From the sequence record OX090892: a stretch of DNA of 40,010 nt; one strand, given 5' to 3'. The stretch is from Escherichia phage vB_Eco_Titus. A program made the translations under genes and the position numbers. Under the pieces are notes generated by a model. That model saw only the letters and a list, made by a program, of their open reading frames with translations. It made no database searches and was not told the DNA's origin. Of the stretch, positions 4,607 through 40,010 are shown piece by piece. The stretch's first letter is position 1. Each line of letters opens with the position of its first letter.

Positions 4607-4630
4607 TAATTAACCCTGACTATTGGAAAC
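4607..4630 (+). promoter_or_regulatory. Phage RNAP promoter, divergent variant (TAATTAACCCTGACTATTGGAAAC), +1 G at 4625
   Basis: Matches family at -17..-10 and -4..+2 but has CCTGA for CACCC. Confidence 0.45.
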
Positions 4631-5737: not shown

Positions 5738-6186
5738 TGGCTAGGACTCCGGTACGAAAACACAATGTGAGTGCGTATCGGTCTGGCCTAGAGGAAAAGA
5801 TTGCGGGTCAGCTTGAACAGGCTGGCCTGCCAGTACGCTTCGAGGAGGCATACATTAAGTATGTCATCCCTGAGTCAGACCATAAGTACACACCTGACTT
5901 CATCCTACCTAACGGTATCATCATTGAGTCAAAGGGTCTGTTCGATGTAGACGATAGGAAGAAACACCTGTTGCTCAAAGACCAGTATCCTGAGTTAGAC
6001 ATCCGGTTTGTGTTCTCTCGATCAGCCACTAAGCTGTACAAGGGAGCCAAGACCACGTATGCCGATTGGTGTGAACGTTATGGTTTTCAGTATGCTGACA
6101 AACTGATTCCGCCTAACTGGTTACGTGAATCCCATAAACCTATTCCAGAAGGAGTATTGATACCTAAAGGAGGTAAATCAAAATGA
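5737..6186 (+). CDS. 3: Endonuclease I, Holliday-junction resolvase (T7 gene 3 homologue)
   Basis: 149 aa; FRSGLE..K...QLE, YTPDFILPNGI..E.KGL, DDRKKHLL, ELDIR.VFS...TKLYKG match T7 gp3. Confidence 0.9.
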   Translation: MARTPVRKHNVSAYRSGLEEKIAGQLEQAGLPVRFEEAYIKYVIPESDHKYTPDFILPNGIIIESKGLFDVDDRKKHLLLKDQYPELDIRFVFSRSATKLYKGAKTTYADWCERYGFQYADKLIPPNWLRESHKPIPEGVLIPKGGKSK

Positions 6187-31332: not shown

Positions 31333-31473
31333 GTGAAGGTTAAAAAGCGTATTGTTGCCGCTGTGGTTCTGGCATCCCTGATTGTTCTGGGTGCTATCTT
31401 TGAAACCGACCTGACCAAGATGGCTGACGCTCTGGTGTCCGTCTCTTGCTCTATCGTTGAGTGTACACAATGA
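31333..31473 (+). CDS. Small single-pass membrane protein (46 aa), GTG start
   Basis: TAAGGAGGT 5 nt upstream of GTG; MKVKKRIVAAVVLASLIVLGAIFE... has one TM helix; stop overlaps holin ATG; not in ORF track. Confidence 0.4.
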   Translation: MKVKKRIVAAVVLASLIVLGAIFETDLTKMADALVSVSCSIVECTQ

Positions 31474-31679: not shown

Positions 31680-31914
31680 AGAGTTTGAGCTATTACTTCA
31701 GGAACTAGACTACGAAGCTGCAAAGCTGATGTTACAAGACCTGAAGAACGACGAGAAGCGTAACCCTCAGTTGTTTAACGCTGTGGTTCGCATGTTGGAA
31801 CGCCACAAGCATACAATTGCAAAGGTTGTTCCTGATGAAAGCATTCTGACCAGTCTTGCGTCTGAACTACCAGACCTGACTGAAGATGAACAATATGGAG
31901 GTATCTTACAATGA
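31669..31914 (+). CDS. 18: Terminase small subunit (T7 gene 18 homologue)
   Basis: 81 aa; position between holin and terminase large subunit; size similar to T7 gp18 (89 aa). Confidence 0.7.
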   Translation: MTPKEFELLLQELDYEAAKLMLQDLKNDEKRNPQLFNAVVRMLERHKHTIAKVVPDESILTSLASELPDLTEDEQYGGILQ

Positions 31915-32054
31915 ACCGTATCGTAACTTGGGTTCTGTTGGTCTGTGTGTGGACTGCTGTTCTGCTGAGTCTCAGTGGTTGCACCATTATGATTGACAGT
32001 CCAAACTCACAACCAATGGTTGAATGTGGTGACTTGTTAGGTATCACCCTGTAA
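31911..32054 (+). CDS. Small lipoprotein (47 aa), possible minimal outer-membrane spanin or exclusion lipoprotein
   Basis: ATG overlapping terS stop (ATGA), GGAGGT 8 nt upstream; signal peptide MNRIVTWVLLVCVWTAVLLSLSG with lipobox LSGC; mature part ~24 aa; not in ORF track. Confidence 0.45.
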   Translation: MNRIVTWVLLVCVWTAVLLSLSGCTIMIDSPNSQPMVECGDLLGITL

Positions 32055-32124: not shown

Positions 32125-32370
32125 ATGACCGAAAGTGATAACGCTACGCAAAATCTGAGTAGAAGTCCTTATGGATTATGGTCAGAAATTGAAGGATTGC
32201 GTAGTCTGGCAGACACTTTGATAGGTGGAGAGATGCCTATGGAGGTGTACAACGCTCTGACTCCTGAGCAAAAGAAGATTACCCTTAACGTAACCAAGGC
32301 GTGTTCACAATGTGCTACTGCCTTAGAGAAGTTTCAAGAGGAGGTACTAAATGTCGGCTGCCCAAAGTAA
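32125..32370 (+). CDS. Hypothetical soluble protein (81 aa)
   Basis: AAGGAGGT RBS; no TM segment; occupies the T7 gene 18.5 position but does not resemble an i-spanin. Confidence 0.5.
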
Positions 32371-34123
32371 CAAAGACAAACTCATTCTAGCTCGCCTGAA
32401 GGCTGACTTTGTGGCGTTCCTCTTTGTCCTGTGGAAAGCGTTGAACCTTCCTAAGCCTACTCGGTGTCAAATCGACATGGCTAGAAAGCTCGCTGCTGGC
32501 TCTGAGAGACGTTTTATCCTTCAGGCATTTCGTGGTATTGGTAAGTCCTTTATCACCTGTGCGTTCGTTGTATGGAAGCTCTGGAACAATCCTCAGTTGA
32601 AGTTCATGATTGTGTCTGCTTCAAAGGAACGTGCTGACGCTAACTCCATCTTTATCAAGCGTATCATTGACCTGTTACCGTTCTTGCATGAGCTGAAACC
32701 TAAGCCTAACCAACGTGACTCTGTAATCAGCTTTGATGTTGGTCTAGCGAAACCTGACCACTCTCCTTCAGTTAAGTCTGTTGGTATCACTGGTCAGTTG
32801 ACTGGTAGCCGTGCTGACATCCTGATTGCGGACGACGTTGAGGTTCCTAACAACAGTTCCACACAGGCTGCTCGTGACCGCCTAGGTGAGCTTGTAAAGG
32901 AGTTTGACGCTATCTTGAAGCCTGAGGGTACTATCATCTACCTTGGTACTCCACAATGCGAAATGACGCTGTACAGAGAGCTTGAGAACCGTGGTTACAC
33001 TACTACCATCTGGCCTGCTCGTTATCCTAAAGACCGCAAAGACCTTGAGTCGTACGGCACACGCTTAGCTCCTATGCTTCTGGAAGACCTTGAGGAAAAC
33101 CCTGAGGCCATGTGGTGGACACCTACTGACCCTGTACGCTTCGATGATGAAGACCTGCGGGAACGTGAGTTGTCATATGGTAAGGCTGGCTTTGCGTTAC
33201 AGTTCATGTTGAACCCTAACCTGAGTGATGCCGAGAAGTATCCACTCAAGTGTCGTGACTTCATTGTGGCGGCTGTAGGTGATGACTTTGCGCCTTTGAC
33301 CTACCAATGGCTACCTAACCACGAGAACCTAGCTGGGAACGTCCCTGCGGTGGGTTTGAAGGGAGACACATACCACTACTACCACGTAGCAGATAAGCGC
33401 ACTGCGGCCTTCTCAGGCAAGATTCTGGCTATTGACCCTAGTGGTCGTGGTAAGGATGAAACAGGGTATGCTGTCTTGTACTTCCTCAATGGCTACATCT
33501 ATGTGATGGCTATGGGTGGCTTCCGAGGTGGTTACGATGATGAAACCCTTGAGAAGCTAGCTAAGGTTGCCAAGCGATGGAAAGTCAATGAGGTTCTGGT
33601 GGAAGGTAACTTTGGTGACGGTATGTACCTCAAAGTGTTCTCTCCGGTACTGGCTCGTATTCATCCTTGTACGTTGACTGAGACTAAGAGTAAAGGTCAG
33701 AAGGAACAACGTATTGCTGATACCATCGAACCTGTCTTAGGTGCTCACCGTATGGTTATCACTGAGGATGCAATTCGTCACGACTATCAGACTGCTCGTA
33801 ATATTGATGGTCAGCATGACATTAAGTATTGCTGCATGTATCAACTTACACGTCTGACTCGTGAACGCGGCGCATTGGCTCACGATGACCGTCTGGACGC
33901 ATTGGCAATCGGGGTGGCATATTTCCTTGAGTCAATCGAGAAAGACGCTCAGAAAGGCGCTGAGGAGCTTACAGAGGAATGGTTGGAAGACCAACTCAAT
34001 GCTGAACGCATCAGTGACCAACTGAGTGACTACATTGTGCATCAAGGCGATGTGGAAATCCGAGTAGGTTACCAAAATGAGGACGCATATTGGGTCACTA
34101 ACCTAGTTGGGTTTGACCGGTGA
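32351..34123 (+). CDS. 19: Terminase large subunit (T7 gene 19 homologue)
   Basis: 590 aa; Walker A-like region (FRGIGKSF), [10 protein letters not shown], nuclease domain; size matches T7 gp19 (586 aa). Confidence 0.95.
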
Positions 34124-34178
34124 TATGTTAACAAAGATGGTTAAATGTTAACGAATTGAGTAGATTTTTGACCATTTT

Positions 34179-34202
34179 GAATTAACACCCACTATTGGAG
34201 TA
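34179..34202 (+). promoter_or_regulatory. Phage RNAP promoter (GAATTAACACCCACTATTGGAGTA), +1 G at 34197; phiOR equivalent
   Basis: Promoter family; downstream of terminase at the right genome end. Confidence 0.6.
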
Positions 34203-34211
34203 TACGACAAT

Positions 34212-34328
34212 AAGAGGGAACATTAAGTCTATAGACACTAGGAGAGTCGACCTTAGAGTAGGCACTCAGTCTGACCTTAGTGTTCCCTCTTTGTCTTGGG
34301 AGTATTCTTCATTATTAGAATAACTCCC
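34212..34328 (+). other. Two long imperfect inverted repeats downstream of phiOR
   Basis: AAGAGGGAACATTAAG (34212-34227) pairs with CTTAGTGTTCCCTCTT (34276-34291); GGGAGTATTCT (34298-34308) pairs with AGAATAACTCCC (34317-34328) and is followed by T-rich TTCTCTTTGTGT. Confidence 0.35.
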
Positions 34329-34373
34329 TTCTCTTTGTGTAGAGACACTGAGGCGTATCTTGGAGGTGATTGT

Positions 34374-34460
34374 ATGAGGAAGACTACCCTTATGGTCACC
34401 TACTATGTGGTTAAAGTTACCTTCTTGGTTTACCTGTTGGTAACCCATGCTGGCGCTTAA
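34374..34460 (+). CDS. Tiny hydrophobic ORF (28 aa) at the T7 gene 19.5 position
   Basis: GGAGGTG 5 nt upstream of ATG; MRKTTLMVTYYVVKVTFLVYLLVTHAGA; may be non-coding. Confidence 0.15.
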   Translation: MRKTTLMVTYYVVKVTFLVYLLVTHAGA

Positions 34461-34499
34461 TCTCGGTATCCTTATCAGTCTACCTACGATTAAGTGTCT

Positions 34500-34630
34500 A
34501 GTGTCAATACCCTTATGTTAGTGACCTTATGTGTTAACCTTAGGGTAGGTTGGTCTTAGTGTCGCCTACCTTATGTTGTTAACACTATGTTAGTCCATTT
34601 TGTACAACACTAGAAAAATCTGAGTGACCA
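34500..34630 (+). repeat. Array of short CCTTATGT-type repeats on the right-end side of the terminal repeat
   Basis: CCTTATGT at 34511, 34525, 34569 plus degenerate copies; analogous to T7 CCTAAAG-type short repeats flanking the terminal repetition. Confidence 0.5.
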
Positions 34631-34810
34631 TCTCACATATCAAGACCCATTTAATCCCCCCATAGGGGTCAAACCTTATGTCCATCCCTTATGTCATTCC
34701 CTAAGTCTATCATTTTGTCTATCAATAGGTTTTAACTCTCGGTTGAGGTGGGGACAATAGGTGGAGACTATGGGTTTGTATCTCTATGTCTCCCTATCTG
34801 TATAGACCTT
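34631..34810 (+). repeat. Terminal repeat, single collapsed copy (approximate bounds)
   Basis: Starts TCTCACA...CCCCCCATAGGGGTC and contains GTCTCCCTATCTGT, matching remembered T7 terminal repeat landmarks; only one copy in window, consistent with a circularised or concatemer-junction representation. Confidence 0.4.
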
Positions 34811-34945
34811 GTGTCTCCTCTCTATGTCTCTACCCTTATGTCTCCTCTCTATGTTCTATCAACTAGGCAGCATCCTACCTTATGTTAGACCCTAGGTCAA
34901 TAACCTTATGTCATAGACCCTATAAATAGACCTTATCTATATAGA
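34807..34945 (+). repeat. Array of short CCTTATGT-type repeats on the left-end side of the terminal repeat
   Basis: CCTTGTGT 34807, CCTTATGT 34834, 34878, 34904, CCTTATCT 34931. Confidence 0.5.
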
Positions 34946-34948
34946 CCA

Positions 34949-34972
34949 TAATTAACACCCACTATTGAAGAA
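34949..34972 (+). promoter_or_regulatory. Phage RNAP promoter, variant (TAATTAACACCCACTATTGAAGAA), +1 G at 34967; phiOL equivalent
   Basis: Promoter family with A at +2; upstream of the host-type early promoters, as T7 phiOL. Confidence 0.5.
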
Positions 34973-35002
34973 CAACAATCTTAATTATTTTAATATTGAG
35001 TA

Positions 35003-35039
35003 TTGACATTAGAACTTAGTGTCTATAGTATGGCGTCCA
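35003..35039 (+). promoter_or_regulatory. Sigma70 early promoter A1-like (TTGACA -17 bp- TAGTAT)
   Basis: -35 TTGACA 35003-35008, -10 TAGTAT 35026-31, AT-rich UP region; predicted transcript start ATCGAAGGGAAACACGG resembles remembered T7 A1 transcript AUCGAGAGGGACACGG. Confidence 0.7.
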
Positions 35040-35131
35040 TCGAAGGGAAACACGGAAACGGTGCGACTCTGAGATTACAGCGTCAAGCGGTACAAGTAGA
35101 CAGCCTGCTAAGTCATACGAACAACAGGTAC

Positions 35132-35167
35132 TTGACAACAGAAACAAGAAACACTAAGATACACCAC
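35132..35167 (+). promoter_or_regulatory. Sigma70 early promoter A2-like (TTGACA -17 bp- TAAGAT)
   Basis: -35 TTGACA 35132-37, -10 TAAGAT 35155-60; same hexamers as remembered T7 A2. Confidence 0.7.
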
Positions 35168-35202
35168 AACGAAACAACAACAGAAACACCAACAAATAGG
35201 AG

Positions 35203-35239
35203 TTGACAATGTTCAAGTTAAAATGTAAAGTGATGCCAA
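35203..35239 (+). promoter_or_regulatory. Sigma70 early promoter A3-like (TTGACA -17 bp- TAAAGT)
   Basis: -35 TTGACA 35203-08, -10 TAAAGT 35226-31. Confidence 0.6.
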
Positions 35240-35489
35240 TCCACAACAAACAGGGTCACACAGTATGTACACCTGATGGATTTGCGATGAATGCTCGTGT
35301 TGAACGACTGAAGCGTGAACTCAAGATGAATCGTATGCTGAACAACATCTAATAGCTACGATAATCAAGCAACACTGCTGGTCTTGTTGTACTACGCAAC
35401 TGCAAATGTAGTCGGGACGATGAAACTGCTATCCCTAAAGTTCTTTAACAATCTGGTATAAAGCGCATGTGTTGAGTTAGAAAGTGATT

Positions 35490-35525
35490 GACTCAAGGCT
35501 GCTGAATGTAGTAGCCTTTATGACA
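35490..35525 (+). ncRNA. RNase III processing-site hairpin (R0.3-like) ahead of RNAP gene
   Basis: GACTCAAGGCTGCTGAATGTAGTAGCCTTTATGA; preceded by TTCTTTAACAATCTGGTA, conserved with remembered T7 sequence upstream of R0.3. Confidence 0.5.
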
Positions 35526-35565
35526 AGCATTTAATTTCAGCCACTATAAGATGGAGACAACAACA

Positions 35566-38250
35566 ATGATTAACTTTGATAACATTCAGCGTAATGACTT
35601 CTCTGATGTGAAGAACGCCATTATGCCATTCAACGTACTGGCTGATGCTTACGGTGAATATCTGGCAGGTGAACAACTGCGCTTAGAGCATGAGTCCTAC
35701 CAGATGGGCGAGGAACGTTTCATCAAGGCGTTCGAGTCTGCCTGTAAGCGCGGTGAACTCGGTGATTCTCTGGTGGCTCGCCCGTTACTGGAAACCTTGG
35801 TTCCTGCACTGAGTGAAGCAACTAAAGCATTCTTAGCTCAAGGTGGTCGTGGTCGTCCGCATGTGTCTAAGCAATACCTGAGCCGTATTGACACCGACCT
35901 TGCTGCCTTTATCACCATCAAAGTTGTGCTGATGTCCTTGGGTTCTCCTGCGACAGGCAAAGTAAACAACCACGGTGCTGTAACTGGTGCTAACATGCAG
36001 TCAGTCTGTATGTCTATCTCCAAGGCTATCGAGGAGGAGTGCCGCTTCGGTCGCATTCGTGAAGAAGAAGCACAGCATTTCAAGAATCGCGTTAAACCAT
36101 CGCTGGATAAGCGCCAAGGTCTGCTGTACAAGCGTGAGTACATGAAGGCTGTTGAAGCTGGCATGATTGCTAAAGGCGAGTTGGATAGTCACTTTGAGGA
36201 GTGGCCGCGCGATGAAGCATACCATGTTGGTGTCAAGATGTTGGAGCTGCTGATTGAATCAACTGGTCTGTGCGAGATTGTACGCAAGAACGCTGGTAAT
36301 CCTAAGTTAGACCGCTACGAAGTGGAACTGACCGAAGAATACGCTGACAAGCTGACCTCTCGTGTGTCTGCCTTGGCTGGTATCTCACCTGTTAAGCAAC
36401 CTTGTGTAGTACCACCTAAGCCTTGGACTGGTATCATCGGCGGTGGCTATTGGGCAAAAGGTCGCAAGCCTTTGCGTCTGATTCGTACCGGAACTAAACG
36501 CGCTCTGATGCGCTACAACGATGTGGATATGCCAGATGTGTACAAAGCTATCAACATCATTCAGAACACCGCTTGGAAGGTCAATGCGGACGTGCTGAAG
36601 GTAGCTAACGAGATTGTCTACTGGAAGCATTGCCCTGTTGAAGACATCCCACAACTGGACAAGCTGGATAAACCTGTACGTCCTGAAGGTATTGATGAAG
36701 ATGAAGCCCTGCTGAAGAAGTGGAAGAAGAACGCTGCGACCATCTACCGCAAGGAGAAAGCCCGTCAGTCTCGCCGCTTGTCTCTTGACTTCATGATGGC
36801 ACAAGCTAACAAGTTCGCTCAGTACGATGCCATTTGGTTCCCGTACACAATGGACTGGCGCGGTCGTGTATATGCTGAGCCAATGTTTAACCCACAAGGT
36901 AACGACCTGACCAAAGGTCTGTTAACTTTCGCTAACGGCTGTGAGCTGGGTTCTGAAGGTGCTTACTGGCTGGCGGTGCATGGCTCCAACTGTGCGGGTG
37001 TCGATAAAGTATCACTGGACGACCGCGTTAAGTGGGTGTACGAGAACGAAGAAAACATCTTGGCATCCGCTGAGAACCCATTAGACTGCACTTGGTGGGC
37101 GGAACAAGACTCCCCATTCTGCTTCTTAGCATTCTGCTTCGAGTGGGCAGGGTACGTTAAGTCTGGCCGTAGTGAAGGCTATGTGTCTCACCTGCCACTG
37201 GCATTCGATGGTACTTGCTCCGGTCTGCAACACTTCTCTGCAATGCTGCGTGATGAAGTTGGTGGTGCTGCTGTTAACCTGCTGCCTGCTGACAAACCAC
37301 AAGACATCTACGGTATTGTTGCCCAGAAAGTAAACGTCCTGTTGGAGCGTGACCTGTTGAACGGCACCGAGGACAGCACCAAGATTGTTGTCGATAAGAA
37401 GACAGGTGAACAGATTGAGAAGTTTGTTCTGGGTACACGTAACGCTGCTAAACAATGGCTGCAACACGGTGTAAACCGTAGCGTAACCAAGCGTTCTGTG
37501 ATGACTCTGGCATACGGTTCCAAGAAGTACGGCTTTGCCGAGCAAATCATGGAGGATACTTTACGTCCTGCCATTGATAAAGGCGAAGGTAATCAGTTCA
37601 CTGCACCTAACCAAGCTGCAATGTATCTGGCTGGTCTTATCTGGGACTGTGTATCAACTACCGTAATCGCTGCGGTACAAGCTATGGAATGGTTGCAGAA
37701 GTCCGCTGCTCTGATTAGTTCAGAAGTGCGAGACAAGAAGACCAAGGAGCTGTTAAAGCCTGCTCTGCCTATTCACTGGACTACTCCTAACGGGTTCCCT
37801 GTTTGGTCAGAGTACATGATTCAGGAGGAGAAGCGCATTGAAGCGACTCTGTTTGGTGAACTGCGTATCCGCAACACTATCAAGCTGCGTGATACCGCCA
37901 AGATTGACGCTCAAGCTCAGGCTTCTGGTATTGCACCTAACTTCATCCATAGCAACGATGCGTCTCACCTGCAAATGACCGCTGTGTACTGCCACGATGT
38001 GTACGGGATTGTTGACTTTGCATTCATCCACGACTCATTCGGTTGTCACGCTGGTAAAGCTCACCTGCTGTTCAAAGGTGTGCGTGAGACAATGGTTAAG
38101 ACTTACAGTGAACACGATGTAATCGCTGAGTTCTATGAGCAATTCGCTGAGCAACTGCACGAGTCCCAACTGGACAAGATGCCAGCTCTTCCTGAGAAGG
38201 GTAACTTAGACCTGAACGAAATCCTGAAGTCACTGTACACTTTCAGTTAA
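35566..38250 (+). CDS. 1: DNA-directed RNA polymerase, single-subunit (T7 gene 1 homologue)
   Basis: 894 aa from ATG 35566 (GGAGA 8 nt upstream; in-frame ATG at 35551 lacks an RBS); very high similarity to T7 RNAP throughout (PFN.LAD.YGE, QPCVVPPKPWTGI.GGGYWA, RKSRR.SL.FM..QANKFA, WAEQDSPFCFLAFCFE, VTKRSVMTLAYGSK, HDSFG, QLHESQLDKMPALP). Confidence 0.97.
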   Translation: MINFDNIQRNDFSDVKNAIMPFNVLADAYGEYLAGEQLRLEHESYQMGEERFIKAFESACKRGELGDSLVARPLLETLVPALSEATKAFLAQGGRGRPHVSKQYLSRIDTDLAAFITIKVVLMSLGSPATGKVNNHGAVTGANMQSVCMSISKAIEEECRFGRIREEEAQHFKNRVKPSLDKRQGLLYKREYMKAVEAGMIAKGELDSHFEEWPRDEAYHVGVKMLELLIESTGLCEIVRKNAGNPKLDRYEVELTEEYADKLTSRVSALAGISPVKQPCVVPPKPWTGIIGGGYWAKGRKPLRLIRTGTKRALMRYNDVDMPDVYKAINIIQNTAWKVNADVLKVANEIVYWKHCPVEDIPQLDKLDKPVRPEGIDEDEALLKKWKKNAATIYRKEKARQSRRLSLDFMMAQANKFAQYDAIWFPYTMDWRGRVYAEPMFNPQGNDLTKGLLTFANGCELGSEGAYWLAVHGSNCAGVDKVSLDDRVKWVYENEENILASAENPLDCTWWAEQDSPFCFLAFCFEWAGYVKSGRSEGYVSHLPLAFDGTCSGLQHFSAMLRDEVGGAAVNLLPADKPQDIYGIVAQKVNVLLERDLLNGTEDSTKIVVDKKTGEQIEKFVLGTRNAAKQWLQHGVNRSVTKRSVMTLAYGSKKYGFAEQIMEDTLRPAIDKGEGNQFTAPNQAAMYLAGLIWDCVSTTVIAAVQAMEWLQKSAALISSEVRDKKTKELLKPALPIHWTTPNGFPVWSEYMIQEEKRIEATLFGELRIRNTIKLRDTAKIDAQAQASGIAPNFIHSNDASHLQMTAVYCHDVYGIVDFAFIHDSFGCHAGKAHLLFKGVRETMVKTYSEHDVIAEFYEQFAEQLHESQLDKMPALPEKGNLDLNEILKSLYTFS

Positions 38251-38269
38251 TAACACCCACTATGGGACA
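38246..38269 (+). promoter_or_regulatory. Phage RNAP promoter, variant (TTAATAACACCCACTATGGGACAG), +1 G at 38264, with leader hairpin
   Basis: One base shorter before the G-run (CACTATGGG); overlaps RNAP stop; leader GGGACAGAC..TTTGTCCC can form a 9-bp stem. Confidence 0.5.
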
Positions 38270-38314
38270 GACAATCCGGTTTGTCCCTAATTACTTAACA
38301 TTTAGGAGGATAAA

Positions 38315-38812
38315 ATGGTTGACTTTTCTGCTGTTGCTGCTGTTGGTTGTGGTGTTCTGAGCATTGTGTCTTGCGTCCTGATGTCTAAGCGAAGCATGGA
38401 CAAGGAAGACATGAAGGTACTGCGCGGCCAAGTCCATGAGTTGAACCAAAAGCTGAAGGCTGAAAAAGAGTACAACGAGTACATGAAGAAAGACTACAAG
38501 TCACGCGAGATTGACTGGATGGGCAAGGTCATTGATGAACAACGGGTAGCCAAGGTGCTGCGTGACGAGTTAGGTAAAGCACGTAAGCAACTGAACGAGA
38601 AGTTACAACCTGCTACTGTGCAGTGTGACGGGGTGTCTATCCGCTTGGACTCCAAGACTTCAATGAACTTCTCGGTAGGAAAAGTGATTAAAGAACTGTC
38701 ACTCTCTGTGCTCGGTAACACTGTGACGGTCACTGTAGTTAAACACAATGGAATTGTTAAATCACATACATTCCAGAACGTGAGCTATAGTTACCGACAA
38801 GCGCAGCAATAA
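38315..38812 (+). CDS. Membrane-anchored coiled-coil protein (165 aa), unknown function
   Basis: AGGAGGA RBS; N-terminal TM helix (FSAVAAVGCGVLSIVSCVLM), charged coiled-coil segment, beta-rich C-terminus; first gene after RNAP, upstream of a terminator-like hairpin. Confidence 0.65.
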   Translation: MVDFSAVAAVGCGVLSIVSCVLMSKRSMDKEDMKVLRGQVHELNQKLKAEKEYNEYMKKDYKSREIDWMGKVIDEQRVAKVLRDELGKARKQLNEKLQPATVQCDGVSIRLDSKTSMNFSVGKVIKELSLSVLGNTVTVTVVKHNGIVKSHTFQNVSYSYRQAQQ

Positions 38813-38822
38813 CAATAACTTA

Positions 38823-38856
38823 GGGTAGTCTGTAATGGGCTACCCTTTTGTCGTTT
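38823..38856 (+). terminator. Intrinsic terminator-like hairpin with T-rich tail (candidate early terminator)
   Basis: GGGTAGTCTGTAATGGGCTACCC (8-9 bp stem) followed by TTTTGTCGTTTG, 10 nt after the stop of the 165-aa gene. Confidence 0.55.
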
Positions 38857-38867
38857 GTTAATGCCAC

Positions 38868-38891
38868 TAATTAACACCCACTATTGGAATA
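38868..38891 (+). promoter_or_regulatory. Phage RNAP promoter (TAATTAACACCCACTATTGGAATA), +1 G at 38886; first of a tandem pair
   Basis: Promoter family; tandem arrangement analogous to T7 phi1.1A/phi1.1B. Confidence 0.6.
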
Positions 38892-38970
38892 TAATGACAA
38901 TAACACTAAGTCTATAAACATTAAGTCTATAACTTATTGTCTATACATTTTGTCTTATTGTTATATTAAT
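38892..38970 (+). other. AT-rich segment with AAGTCTATA repeats between tandem promoters; candidate primary replication origin
   Basis: High A+T (..TAATGACAATAACACTAAGTCTATAAACATTAAGTCTATAACTTATTGTCTATACATTTTGTCTTATTGTTATATTAATTA..); T7 primary origin is the AT-rich region by the tandem phi1.1A/B promoters just downstream of gene 1. Confidence 0.4.
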
Positions 38971-38994
38971 TATTTAACACCCACTATTGGAAAC
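38971..38994 (+). promoter_or_regulatory. Phage RNAP promoter (variant TATTTAACACCCACTATTGGAAAC), +1 G at 38989; second of tandem pair
   Basis: Promoter family; 35 nt upstream of the methyltransferase ATG. Confidence 0.6.
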
Positions 38995-39023
38995 ATTAAG
39001 TCTAAACACTAAGAGGAAACATT

Positions 39024-39749
39024 ATGTTAGGTGGAGCACCATTTCAGATTGTACAACCTAAAGAGCCAGTGAAGTTCGGTGGATTAGGTCACGCTAATGT
39101 AGGCATAAAGTCATTACCTAAAGACCGTGGTGTATCATGGTCTGACTTCTATAAGGGTCGCTTAGGTCAGTCCTATGTTAGTCATGTGTACAAGAACTAT
39201 AAGGTACATATTGAAGCTATTCGCAGATACATCATTCAGCTATCGCTCAGTAAGAACAGCTCAATCAAACCACTACGTGTAGTCGAAGCTGGTTGTGGTA
39301 TCGGGTCTATCACACTGAACCTTGCTGATATGTCAGACCATAAGACAGTTATCTGCTCAGGCTTTGATGTGTCAGAAGGACAAGTTGTTAACTCTCGTGA
39401 GAACGCATTGCTTAACAATGTGGGTGACAGAGTGTCCTTTCATAAAGGTGACATCTTTAATAGTGACGTATATAAAGATGCCCACATCATTCACTCTCAT
39501 GGTGTCTTAGAACACTTCAGTGACGATGACATTATGAAAATCCTATTGACACAACTCAGTTCTCCTAACGTTCGGTATGTCATTCACTATGTACCACTGG
39601 AAGGATGGAAGACTCCCTCTTATGGTGATGAACGCCTGTTACCGCTGACACATTGGGTCAATGAGTTCGCTCCTACCCGTACCGTTGCGTTCAACGATGG
39701 TAAAGACGCTGTGCTAATCTGGGACGTTGAGTCTTTACTTCGCAATTAA
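39024..39749 (+). CDS. Class I SAM-dependent methyltransferase (241 aa), substrate unknown
   Basis: AAGAGGA RBS; Rossmann motif I VVEAGCGIGSITLNLA, acidic residue after beta2 (GFDVSEGQ), GDIFNSD, HIIHSHGVLEHFSDDD typical of small-molecule/RNA methyltransferases; no DPPY/NPPY DNA-MTase motif. Confidence 0.65.
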   Translation: MLGGAPFQIVQPKEPVKFGGLGHANVGIKSLPKDRGVSWSDFYKGRLGQSYVSHVYKNYKVHIEAIRRYIIQLSLSKNSSIKPLRVVEAGCGIGSITLNLADMSDHKTVICSGFDVSEGQVVNSRENALLNNVGDRVSFHKGDIFNSDVYKDAHIIHSHGVLEHFSDDDIMKILLTQLSSPNVRYVIHYVPLEGWKTPSYGDERLLPLTHWVNEFAPTRTVAFNDGKDAVLIWDVESLLRN

Positions 39750-39766
39750 CACCCACTATTGGAGAA
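39743..39766 (+). promoter_or_regulatory. Phage RNAP promoter (CAATTAACACCCACTATTGGAGAA), +1 G at 39761
   Basis: Promoter family; overlaps methyltransferase stop; precedes ligase. Confidence 0.6.
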
Positions 39767-39847
39767 CATCGTGTATGAACACTGCTGATATTCTCGCTAT
39801 CAACTCTATGTTTCAATCCTTATACAAATCCATTGGAGGTAATTCAA

Positions 39848-40010
39848 ATGTTTACAATCAATCCGGCAAAGCCAGTAGCGTACAAAGAGTCAGCGATTCA
39901 GAAAGCTCTGGACAAGTCCGGTTCCCTAATCGCAGACCGCAAGTACGATGGAGTCCGTTGCCACATCGTGATTAAACCCACGGCTGACATCAATGGTCGT
40001 CCTGCTGCCC
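39848..40010 (+). CDS. 1.3: ATP-dependent DNA ligase, N-terminal part (T7 gene 1.3 homologue); 3' end cut by window edge, continues in frame at 1..809
   Basis: GGAGG RBS; MFTINPAKPVAYKESAIQKALDKSGSLIADRKYDGVRCHIV matches T7 ligase N-terminus including adenylation lysine motif KYDGVR. Confidence 0.85.
   Translation, partial: MFTINPAKPVAYKESAIQKALDKSGSLIADRKYDGVRCHIVIKPTADINGRPAA

Follow-up and report, generated by a model that had tools for sequence, protein, structure and literature searches.

A T7-type early transcription unit without ocr and 0.7 kinase genes in Escherichia phage vB_Eco_Titus, and the ORFan membrane protein that it encodes

Introduction

In phage T7, for which record AY264774.1 and the map of Dunn and Studier (1983) served as reference, the class I transcription unit contains the phage promoter phiOL, a cluster of sigma70 promoters, hairpin sites, gene 0.6, gene 1, phage promoters after gene 1 and a downstream terminator. 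Here we describe the corresponding interval, positions 34,949 to 38,856, of a 40,010-nucleotide (nt) stretch of DNA from Escherichia phage vB_Eco_Titus (record OX090892), which is referred to throughout as the window. Judged by its sequence, the interval is a T7-type class I unit, that is, one for the host RNA polymerase (RNAP), and it shares all of the above features with T7. The order in the unit would be phiOL, three sigma70 promoters, a gp0.6-type gene, one RNase III-type hairpin, gene 1 (the phage RNAP gene), a phi1.1-type promoter, an open reading frame (ORF) of 165 amino acids (aa), hereafter ORF165, and a terminator (Table 1).

The unit also departs from that of T7. Genes 0.3, 0.4, 0.5, 0.7, 1.1 and 1.2 are present in T7, whereas the window has none of them: tblastn searches of the whole window with these genes, and with the Ocr and kinase sequences of its relatives, gave no matches. 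Unlike in T7, the gene for the 0.6 homologue is the first of the unit and overlaps the third promoter, and there is a single hairpin element. The T7 phage promoters after gene 1 lie at 5832, 5907 and 6393, in the place of phi1.1A/B, and their equivalent in the window is at 38250-38267. The early terminator of T7 follows the ligase gene, whereas that of the window precedes it, and ligase therefore becomes a gene of the phage RNAP.

A preliminary description of the region, made from the sequence alone, had proposed much of this layout, and its operon anatomy was borne out. The phiOL site, three sigma70 promoters equivalent to A1-A3, an R0.3-like hairpin ahead of the RNAP gene, the RNAP gene itself, a 165-aa protein with an N-terminal transmembrane (TM) helix, a coiled coil and a beta-rich C-terminus, and a terminator-like hairpin near 38823 were all located as claimed, and the absence of homologues of genes 0.3 (Ocr) and 0.7 (kinase) was confirmed. 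Its interpretation of the region fared less well, as set out below. We consider it likely, and well supported, that the unit has this anatomy and a deletion origin, and that ORF165 is a conserved, dispensable, dually transcribed accessory membrane protein.

Table 1. Predicted features of the early unit and a late-region membrane protein discussed with it; coordinates are those of the window.
Feature	Coordinates	Strand	Details
phiOL-like phage-RNAP promoter	34952..34969	+	TTAACACCCACTATTGAA; 1 mismatch to 17-copy consensus
sigma70 promoter, A1 equivalent	35003..35031	+	TTGACA-17-TAGTAT; 10/12 match; identical in L003
sigma70 promoter, A2 equivalent	35132..35160	+	TTGACA-17-TAAGAT; 10/12 match
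sigma70 promoter, A3 equivalent	35203..35231	+	TTGACA-17-TAAAGT; 10/12 match
47-aa homologue of T7 gp0.6A	35209..35352	+	AGGAG Shine-Dalgarno 35198-35202; phrog_8393, E 5e-20
RNase III-site-like hairpin element	35474..35533	+	60 nt, conserved, single copy; 10-bp upper stem 35495-35518 in larger imperfect stem
T7-type single-subunit RNA polymerase	35566..38250	+	894 aa; Pfam RNA_pol 3.9e-115, RPOL_N 7.9e-24
Phage-RNAP promoter	38250..38267	+	ATAACACCCACTATGGGA; 2 mismatches; overlaps RNAP stop, directly 5' of ORF165
Stable 5' hairpin	38264..38287	+	GGGACAGAC...GUUUGUCCC; -14.6 kcal/mol, z -4.71; conserved, one loop change in L009
ORF165, ORFan bitopic membrane protein	38315..38812	+	165 aa; strong AGGAGG Shine-Dalgarno
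Intrinsic terminator, TE equivalent	38822..38856	+	hairpin 38822-38846, 10-11-bp G+C-rich stem, then UUUUGUCGUUUG T tract
46-aa type II membrane protein	31333-31473		N-flank MKVKKR, TM helix, 21-aa tail with 2 Cys; weak PHROG 'holin' match

A Missing ocr-Kinase Block and Its Relation to a Repeated Hairpin Element

From 35360 to 40010 the window has 100% identity to Escherichia phage vB_Eco_Mak (OX001577.1) and 99.9% to vB_Eco_Bam. These two Studiervirinae have genomes of 40,137 bp and arbitrarily linearised records. It follows that the window represents almost all of a T7-like genome in permuted form; its large terminase gene has its end at 34123, and the early region studied here forms the true left end. 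Exact-sequence look-ups provided further assembled relatives, designated L003 (ERR11525691), L018 (ERR10789834) and L021 (ERR10789771), along with L004 and L009. Across the early region, L003, L018 and L021 have 91-98% nt identity to the window. The phage promoters of L018 and L021 are of the same type as those in the window and differ from the type found in L003, L004 and L009; on account of this match, L018 and L021 were taken as its closest kin.

The early genes of L003, L018 and L021 encode, in order, gp0.6, Ocr (PF08684), a 43-aa ORF, a 41-aa ORF, the T7 kinase (PF27024) and RNAP. In L003, three copies of the hairpin element, at 716, 1503 and 2324, stand before ocr, the kinase gene and gene 1, respectively, with the first and third copies being 87% identical. 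Such repeated placement would fit RNase III sites. The fold of the 60-nt element has a z-score of only -1.38, and Rfam has no model for it. When the window was aligned to these relatives, positions 35481-35548 matched twice in each of L003, L018 and L021, just 5' of ocr and just 5' of gene 1. The single copy in the window has the upstream flank and the internal variants of the copy that precedes ocr, and its 3' sequence continues into gene 1.

The simplest reading of these alignments is that the single hairpin element would be the scar of a deletion of about 1.6 kb between hairpin copies 1 and 3. The lineage of the window would have lost a block of this size, comprising ocr, two small ORFs and the 0.7 kinase gene, by recombination between the two direct copies of the element that flank the block in its closest relatives. 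The deletion layout occurs in the natural isolates Mak and Bam, and a third deposited genome probably shares it, judging by the consecutive accession numbers of its gp0.6 and ORF165 proteins. The earlier view that the region is minimal as such did not hold up, since relatives at 91-98% nt identity carry ocr and the kinase gene in a block flanked by hairpin copies; again as the simplest reading, the "minimal" layout would be secondary and the result of a recent deletion. A gp2-type host-RNAP inhibitor is encoded at 1784-1948, as detected by tblastn, and therefore not all shut-off functions have been lost with the block.

Promoters, Leader and Terminator

The consensus of the phage promoters in the window, TTAACACCCACTATTGGA, was found at 17 sites on the + strand versus 0.02 expected by chance; examples are at 1928, 11556 and 38871. 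The phiOL-like site has a TTGAA variant that is also found in L003. All three sigma70 sites have a perfect TTGACA, a spacer of 17 nt and a 10/12 match overall. Only four sites of that quality were found in the whole window (both strands, 80 kb), versus 8.9 expected from shuffles, and three of the four fall within one 230-nt stretch, a cluster that is far beyond chance. The leader at 35135-35200, 5' of the Shine-Dalgarno sequence of the gp0.6 gene, is A/C-rich and G/U-poor (ACAACAGAAACAAGAAACAC...CAACAACAGAAACACCAACAAAT), unstructured and kept in L003.

At the other end of the unit, the terminator has a predicted fold of -15 kcal/mol (z -3.75), and none of 200 shuffled sequences was as stable. 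It is kept in four relatives, unchanged in L003 and L004 and with a single change in the loop in L009. Downstream of the terminator, at 38871 and 38974, are two phage promoters of consensus sequence. A search of window positions 34000-40010 against Rfam gave no matches.

A gp0.6 Homologue in the Early Unit

The preliminary description held that the gene for the 165-aa protein was the only other gene before the terminator, and its product apparently the only early protein besides RNAP. Both statements proved incorrect, as the early unit also encodes a 47-aa homologue of T7 gp0.6A that had been overlooked. The match to T7 gene 0.6A by tblastn had 66% identity over 44 residues (94% coverage, E 2e-17). 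A Pfam search of the 47-aa ORF itself returned no families; PF26851 (Phage_T7_0_6) is recorded on the identical protein of L003, L018 and L021. The window protein is C-terminally shorter than T7 gp0.6A (47 aa versus 53 aa), and the match is to 0.6A, with no sign of the frameshifted 0.6B form. The T7 protein has been studied for its targeting of MreB, in 2014 work as cited in PMC6965359.

The start codon of the gp0.6 gene abuts the -35 box of the A3-equivalent promoter, and transcripts from that promoter would therefore start inside the ORF. Based on this arrangement, gp0.6 would be encodable only by transcripts from phiOL and the first two sigma70 promoters.

Expression, Conservation and Architecture of ORF165

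A transcript from the phage promoter that precedes ORF165 would start with the stable hairpin listed in Table 1. Relatives whose promoters are of the TTAACCCTGACTATTGGA type have TTAACACTGACTATGGGA at this position, a change of CC to TG at -8/-7 that is also seen at every other promoter. Because this change tracks the promoter specificity of the lineage, there is good comparative evidence that the promoter is functional. The view of ORF165 as early only must be revised in light of this promoter, which has two mismatches and lies between the RNAP stop and ORF165; the gene would not be purely early, being reached by read-through of the host RNAP and also transcribed from its own phage-RNAP promoter.

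Five genomes (Mak, Bam, L003, L004 and L018) carry ORF165 at its full 165 aa, and the encoded proteins are 90-100% identical. The ratio of non-synonymous to synonymous substitution rates (dN/dS) was 0.09-0.30, with 20-27 synonymous versus 7-22 non-synonymous differences (Sd and Nd), and is comparable to that of RNAP (0.03-0.11). ORF165 is a real gene under purifying selection. In L003, codons 27-52 (window 38393-38470, 78 nt, encoding the juxtamembrane helix) have a dN of 0.35 and a saturated dS between flanks that are nearly identical, which looks like a patch recombined from an unsampled, more distant allele of ORF165.

An internally deleted allele was identified in L009, a contig of 1474 bp from SRR25957055, in which short direct repeats mark deletions of 221 nt and 105 nt within ORF165. 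Gene calling gave the remnant as a chimeric protein of 74 aa (P0004), and its promoter, ribosome-binding site and terminator are intact. This allele indicates that ORF165 can be lost in nature and is therefore dispensable.

The protein has a TM helix at about residues 4-23 (hydropathy 2.27), helices at 30-72 and 75-96, and, in its last ~65 residues, six beta strands (100-153), according to the secondary structure in AlphaFold2 (AF2) models. The full-length AF2 model from a single sequence was poor, with a predicted local distance difference test (pLDDT) score of 47; the C-terminal domain alone reached 63.6. The isoelectric point is 9.4.

Homology Searches with ORF165

A search of 5.8e9 clustered proteins, with an exhaustive HMMER search of 1.84e9 representatives, found only copies of ORF165 that are at least 90% identical. 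No relatives beyond such near-identical copies were found by tblastn against 50,697 phage records or in scans of IMG/VR and JGI metagenomes. There were no family assignments from Pfam, PHROGs, NCBIfam or PADLOC, and no matches to PADLOC or known anti-defence families. Comparison with PDB sequences gave weak matches only (E 0.028-6.1), to coiled-coil-type proteins such as LRS4 and BICD-family adaptors, and a Foldseek search of BFVD gave no matches at E<=0.001. As an ORFan, ORF165 is restricted to this phage group.

Several candidate assignments were rejected. A phmmer match to a 1358-aa SH3b-repeat glucosaminidase with 12 repeats, at 4e-10 summed over nine stretches, was inflated by the repeats; SH3_3 had an hhalign probability of 8.8% for the beta domain and was unmatched in Pfam at E<=10. 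The Pfam matches to DUF4756, DUF7946 and 60KD_IMP (E 0.009-0.1) were far below cut-offs, and a full-text search found nothing on these families. A reading of the N-terminus as that of a lipoprotein (AVGC, residues 9-12) was set aside based on an n-region without K/R, D3 in the stretch that should be uncharged and a position -3 that is not L, V or I.

The contents of the slot between gene 1 and ligase, where ORF165 lies, vary among phages, with an HNH endonuclease gene in Aeromonas phage PZL-Ah8, other ORFs in PZL-Ah152 and genes 1.1/1.2 in T7. In this group, the slot contains ORF165 with or without a methyltransferase gene. That gene, at 39024-39749 in the window, encodes a class I S-adenosylmethionine (SAM) methyltransferase (Methyltransf_31 1.7e-10, PADLOC mad2 1.6e-10), has two consensus phage promoters upstream and is a presence/absence accessory, being found in L004 and L018 and missing from L003. 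It may be relevant to restriction evasion now that Ocr is gone.

Membrane Topology and the Lysis Genes of the Window

The residues flanking the TM helix of ORF165 are MVD on the N-terminal side, with no K/R, and KRSMDKEDMKVLRGQ on the C-terminal side, with five K/R including KR directly after the helix. By the positive-inside rule, this distribution favours an N-out/C-in orientation, and suggests a topology opposite to that of the type II i-spanins. By contrast, K/R are present in the N-flanks of two i-spanins, T7 gp18.5 (MLEFLRK) and lambda Rz (MSR). No family of spanins in PHROGs, Pfam or NCBIfam was matched by ORF165 at E<=1, in keeping with the earlier judgement that an i-spanin was the less likely identity. 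The alternate frames of ORF165 are closed, which excludes an embedded o-spanin, and no overlapping or adjacent ORF with a lipobox was found.

The only credible lipoprotein ORF in the window, at 31911-32054, encodes 47 aa with the lipobox LSLSGC and a mature part of 24 aa. In the position of T7 18.5/18.7, the window has this lipoprotein and an 81-aa soluble ORFan without an i-spanin. The late region (31333-31473, 31911-32054, 32125-32370) as a whole is without a canonical i-spanin and encodes a 46-aa protein, a gp17.5-type holin, gp18, the 47-aa lipoprotein and the 81-aa ORFan. In phage PZL-Ah8 (L007, 832-1124), a 46-aa protein and a 51-aa lipoprotein are encoded by adjacent, overlapping genes. 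The 46-aa protein and the small lipoprotein could constitute a miniature two-component spanin or another outer-membrane-disruption device.

Alternative Explanations

Evidence on both sides was found for an opposite direction of the event at the hairpin element, in which the short early region would be ancestral, the relatives would have gained the ocr-kinase cassette by insertion and the window would preserve the original minimal design. Direct repeats that flank a block are also compatible with insertion by recombination, and the early-region content of Studiervirinae is plastic (PMC10974468). However, both sublineages defined by promoter type carry the block, L003 in one and L018 and L021 in the other, among them the closest relative of the window at 98% identity, and T7 carries 0.3 and 0.7 in the corresponding region. 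In addition, the three hairpin copies of L003 are as expected of serial RNase III sites, and the lone copy of the window runs into gene 1 from a pre-ocr upstream context. We consider insertion improbable. The suggestion of the preliminary description that ORF165, as the sole early protein besides RNAP, is the principal shut-off, exclusion or defence-evasion effector and replaces Ocr and gp0.7 is consistent with the absence of those two proteins, with the conservation of ORF165 under purifying selection and with its early placement upstream of the terminator behind a strong Shine-Dalgarno sequence. This role is nevertheless unlikely. ORF165 is accompanied by the gp0.6 homologue, so the premise of a sole early protein is false; shut-off is covered by the gp2-type inhibitor; ORF165 also has a phage promoter; a deleted allele occurs naturally; no PADLOC or known anti-defence family was matched; and the computed evidence shows no such role. 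Furthermore, ORF165 is no substitute for Ocr and gp0.7 because relatives (L003 and L018) have all three. That ORF165 is a chance or decaying ORF might be proposed from the absence of homologues outside the group and from the deleted copy in L009, yet it is scarcely credible for an ORF that is intact in five genomes, in which synonymous changes dominate, and that has its own promoter, strong Shine-Dalgarno sequence and terminator.

A further possibility is that ORF165 is an i-spanin whose o-spanin partner, the 47-aa lipoprotein, is encoded about 33 kb away on the map, the two jointly disrupting the outer membrane at lysis. No other ORF of the window has a TM helix at its N-terminus and a long helical domain after it. 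Like lambda Rz and T7 gp18.5, to which it is similar in size (165 aa versus 143-153 aa), ORF165 combines an N-terminal TM helix and coiled-coil-prone helices with one extramembrane Cys, the conserved C104; the T7 18.5/18.7 position holds only the lipoprotein, and its surroundings lack an i-spanin. Kongari et al. (2018; PMC6139136) recorded 31 phages with a lipoprotein gene and without a linked i-spanin, with a method to which widely separated spanin pairs are undetectable, the known pairs lying at most about 1 kb apart. Against this, ORF165 differs from i-spanins in matching no spanin family, in having no lipoprotein ORF embedded, overlapping or adjoining, in the lack of a positive N-flank and the KR after the TM helix that favours N-out/C-in, and in its 60-aa beta-rich C-terminal domain. 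It also lies not in a lysis cassette but in an early/middle unit, in a variable accessory slot from which it can be naturally deleted. Moreover, PZL-Ah8 has a like small lipoprotein beside its 46-aa type II membrane protein yet no homologue of ORF165 or other bitopic coiled-coil protein, and the window has, in its own 46-aa protein, a candidate that lies closer to the lipoprotein as its partner. We therefore regard an i-spanin as very unlikely. Were it true, this would be the first two-component spanin with unlinked subunit genes, at opposite genome ends and in different temporal classes, and it would explain part of the phages reported by Kongari et al. to have a lipoprotein and no i-spanin. 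The wider interest of the question is in a coliphage with an orphan lipoprotein and without a canonical i-spanin.

For the role of ORF165, we speculate that its single N-terminal anchor, probably N-out/C-in, would tether it to the inner membrane, with a basic coiled-coil stalk presenting a small beta-sandwich-like head. The head would bind a membrane-proximal component of the host or of an incoming phage, and ORF165 would thus serve as an accessory factor in superinfection exclusion or in countering an envelope-associated defence. We offer this mechanism tentatively; on this view, ORF165 is neither the main shut-off factor of the phage nor its i-spanin. A literature search for early membrane exclusion proteins of T7-like phages found nothing relevant.

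A number of points weigh against the account preferred here, namely a class I unit shortened by deletion that encodes ORF165 as an accessory membrane protein. The direction of the event, deletion rather than insertion in the relatives, is drawn from parsimony and repeat structure, and the exact crossover is not placeable, given that the stretch immediately 3' of the repeat is itself diverged. The promoter, terminator and RNase III activities are predictions from consensus and structure only; in vivo promoter use and RNase III processing are inferred, as are the topology and function of ORF165. Homology, structure matches and context tie ORF165 to no function, and L009 is one short assembled contig.

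RNA Polymerase, Promoter Specificity and Neighboring Sequences

The conserved start of the RNAP gene is at 35566, since the relatives start there and do not have the in-frame ATG at 35551, a lineage-specific codon upstream of the start that overlaps the Shine-Dalgarno sequence. Sibling phages differ in promoter specificity, with TTAACACCCACTATTGGA in the window, L018 and L021 and TTAACCCTGACTATTGGA in L003, L004 and L009. The two types differ at -10, -8 and -7, with the CACTAT core aligned to the T7 promoter. Their RNAPs have 40 amino-acid differences, of which 14 are in residues 103-130 and nine in residues 752-771 (window ~35872-35955 and ~37819-37878, respectively). The second of these clusters lies roughly at the location of the T7 specificity loop. 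Based on these comparisons, the siblings represent a naturally occurring RNAP/promoter pair that is nearly orthogonal, at ~93% genome identity. The site at 4610-4627 is TTAACCCTGACTATTGGA, an exact match to the consensus of the other lineage with three mismatches to that of the window, and may be a relic or a recombined segment.

Between a phiOR-like promoter (34182) and phiOL (34952), positions 34200-34950 contain short direct-repeat arrays of the CCTTATGT type. By their resemblance to the repeat arrays near the T7 ends, the physical genome ends and terminal repeat are probably in this stretch. HNH endonuclease genes (PF01844 / PF13392) adjoin the large terminase gene in the relatives L012, L015, L017 and L013, either ahead of it on the gp18.x side or just after it; the window is without them.

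Comparison with Known Systems

The nearest parallel to the missing block is in the early-region deletions of T7. Studier's mutants deleted between 0.3 and 0.7 were reportedly viable and arose in the laboratory between short direct repeats. They resemble the arrangement described here in that dispensable genes lying after the early promoters and before gene 1 are lost, with viability kept, by direct-repeat recombination. They differ in that the deletion layout of the window group is found in natural isolates, and its repeats are hairpin elements of about 60 nt with 87% identity. The window thus represents a clean natural case of T7-like early-region remodelling, in which a 1.6-kb non-essential host-takeover block would have gone while sisters at 96-98% identity keep it. 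The loss of Ocr predicts a host-range cost, sensitivity to type I restriction.

The closest counterparts of ORF165 by position are T7 genes 1.1 and 1.2, which likewise lie between gene 1 and ligase, are preceded by a phage promoter of their own and are non-essential accessories. T7 gp1.1 and gp1.2 (42 and 85 aa) are soluble and unrelated in sequence to ORF165, which is membrane-anchored. As a compact, well-expressed, genus-restricted membrane protein, ORF165 has nothing that lifts it above many accessory ORFans of phages. Set beside T7, the region as a whole is best read as a familiar type of operon shortened by deletion, with an added ORFan accessory gene.

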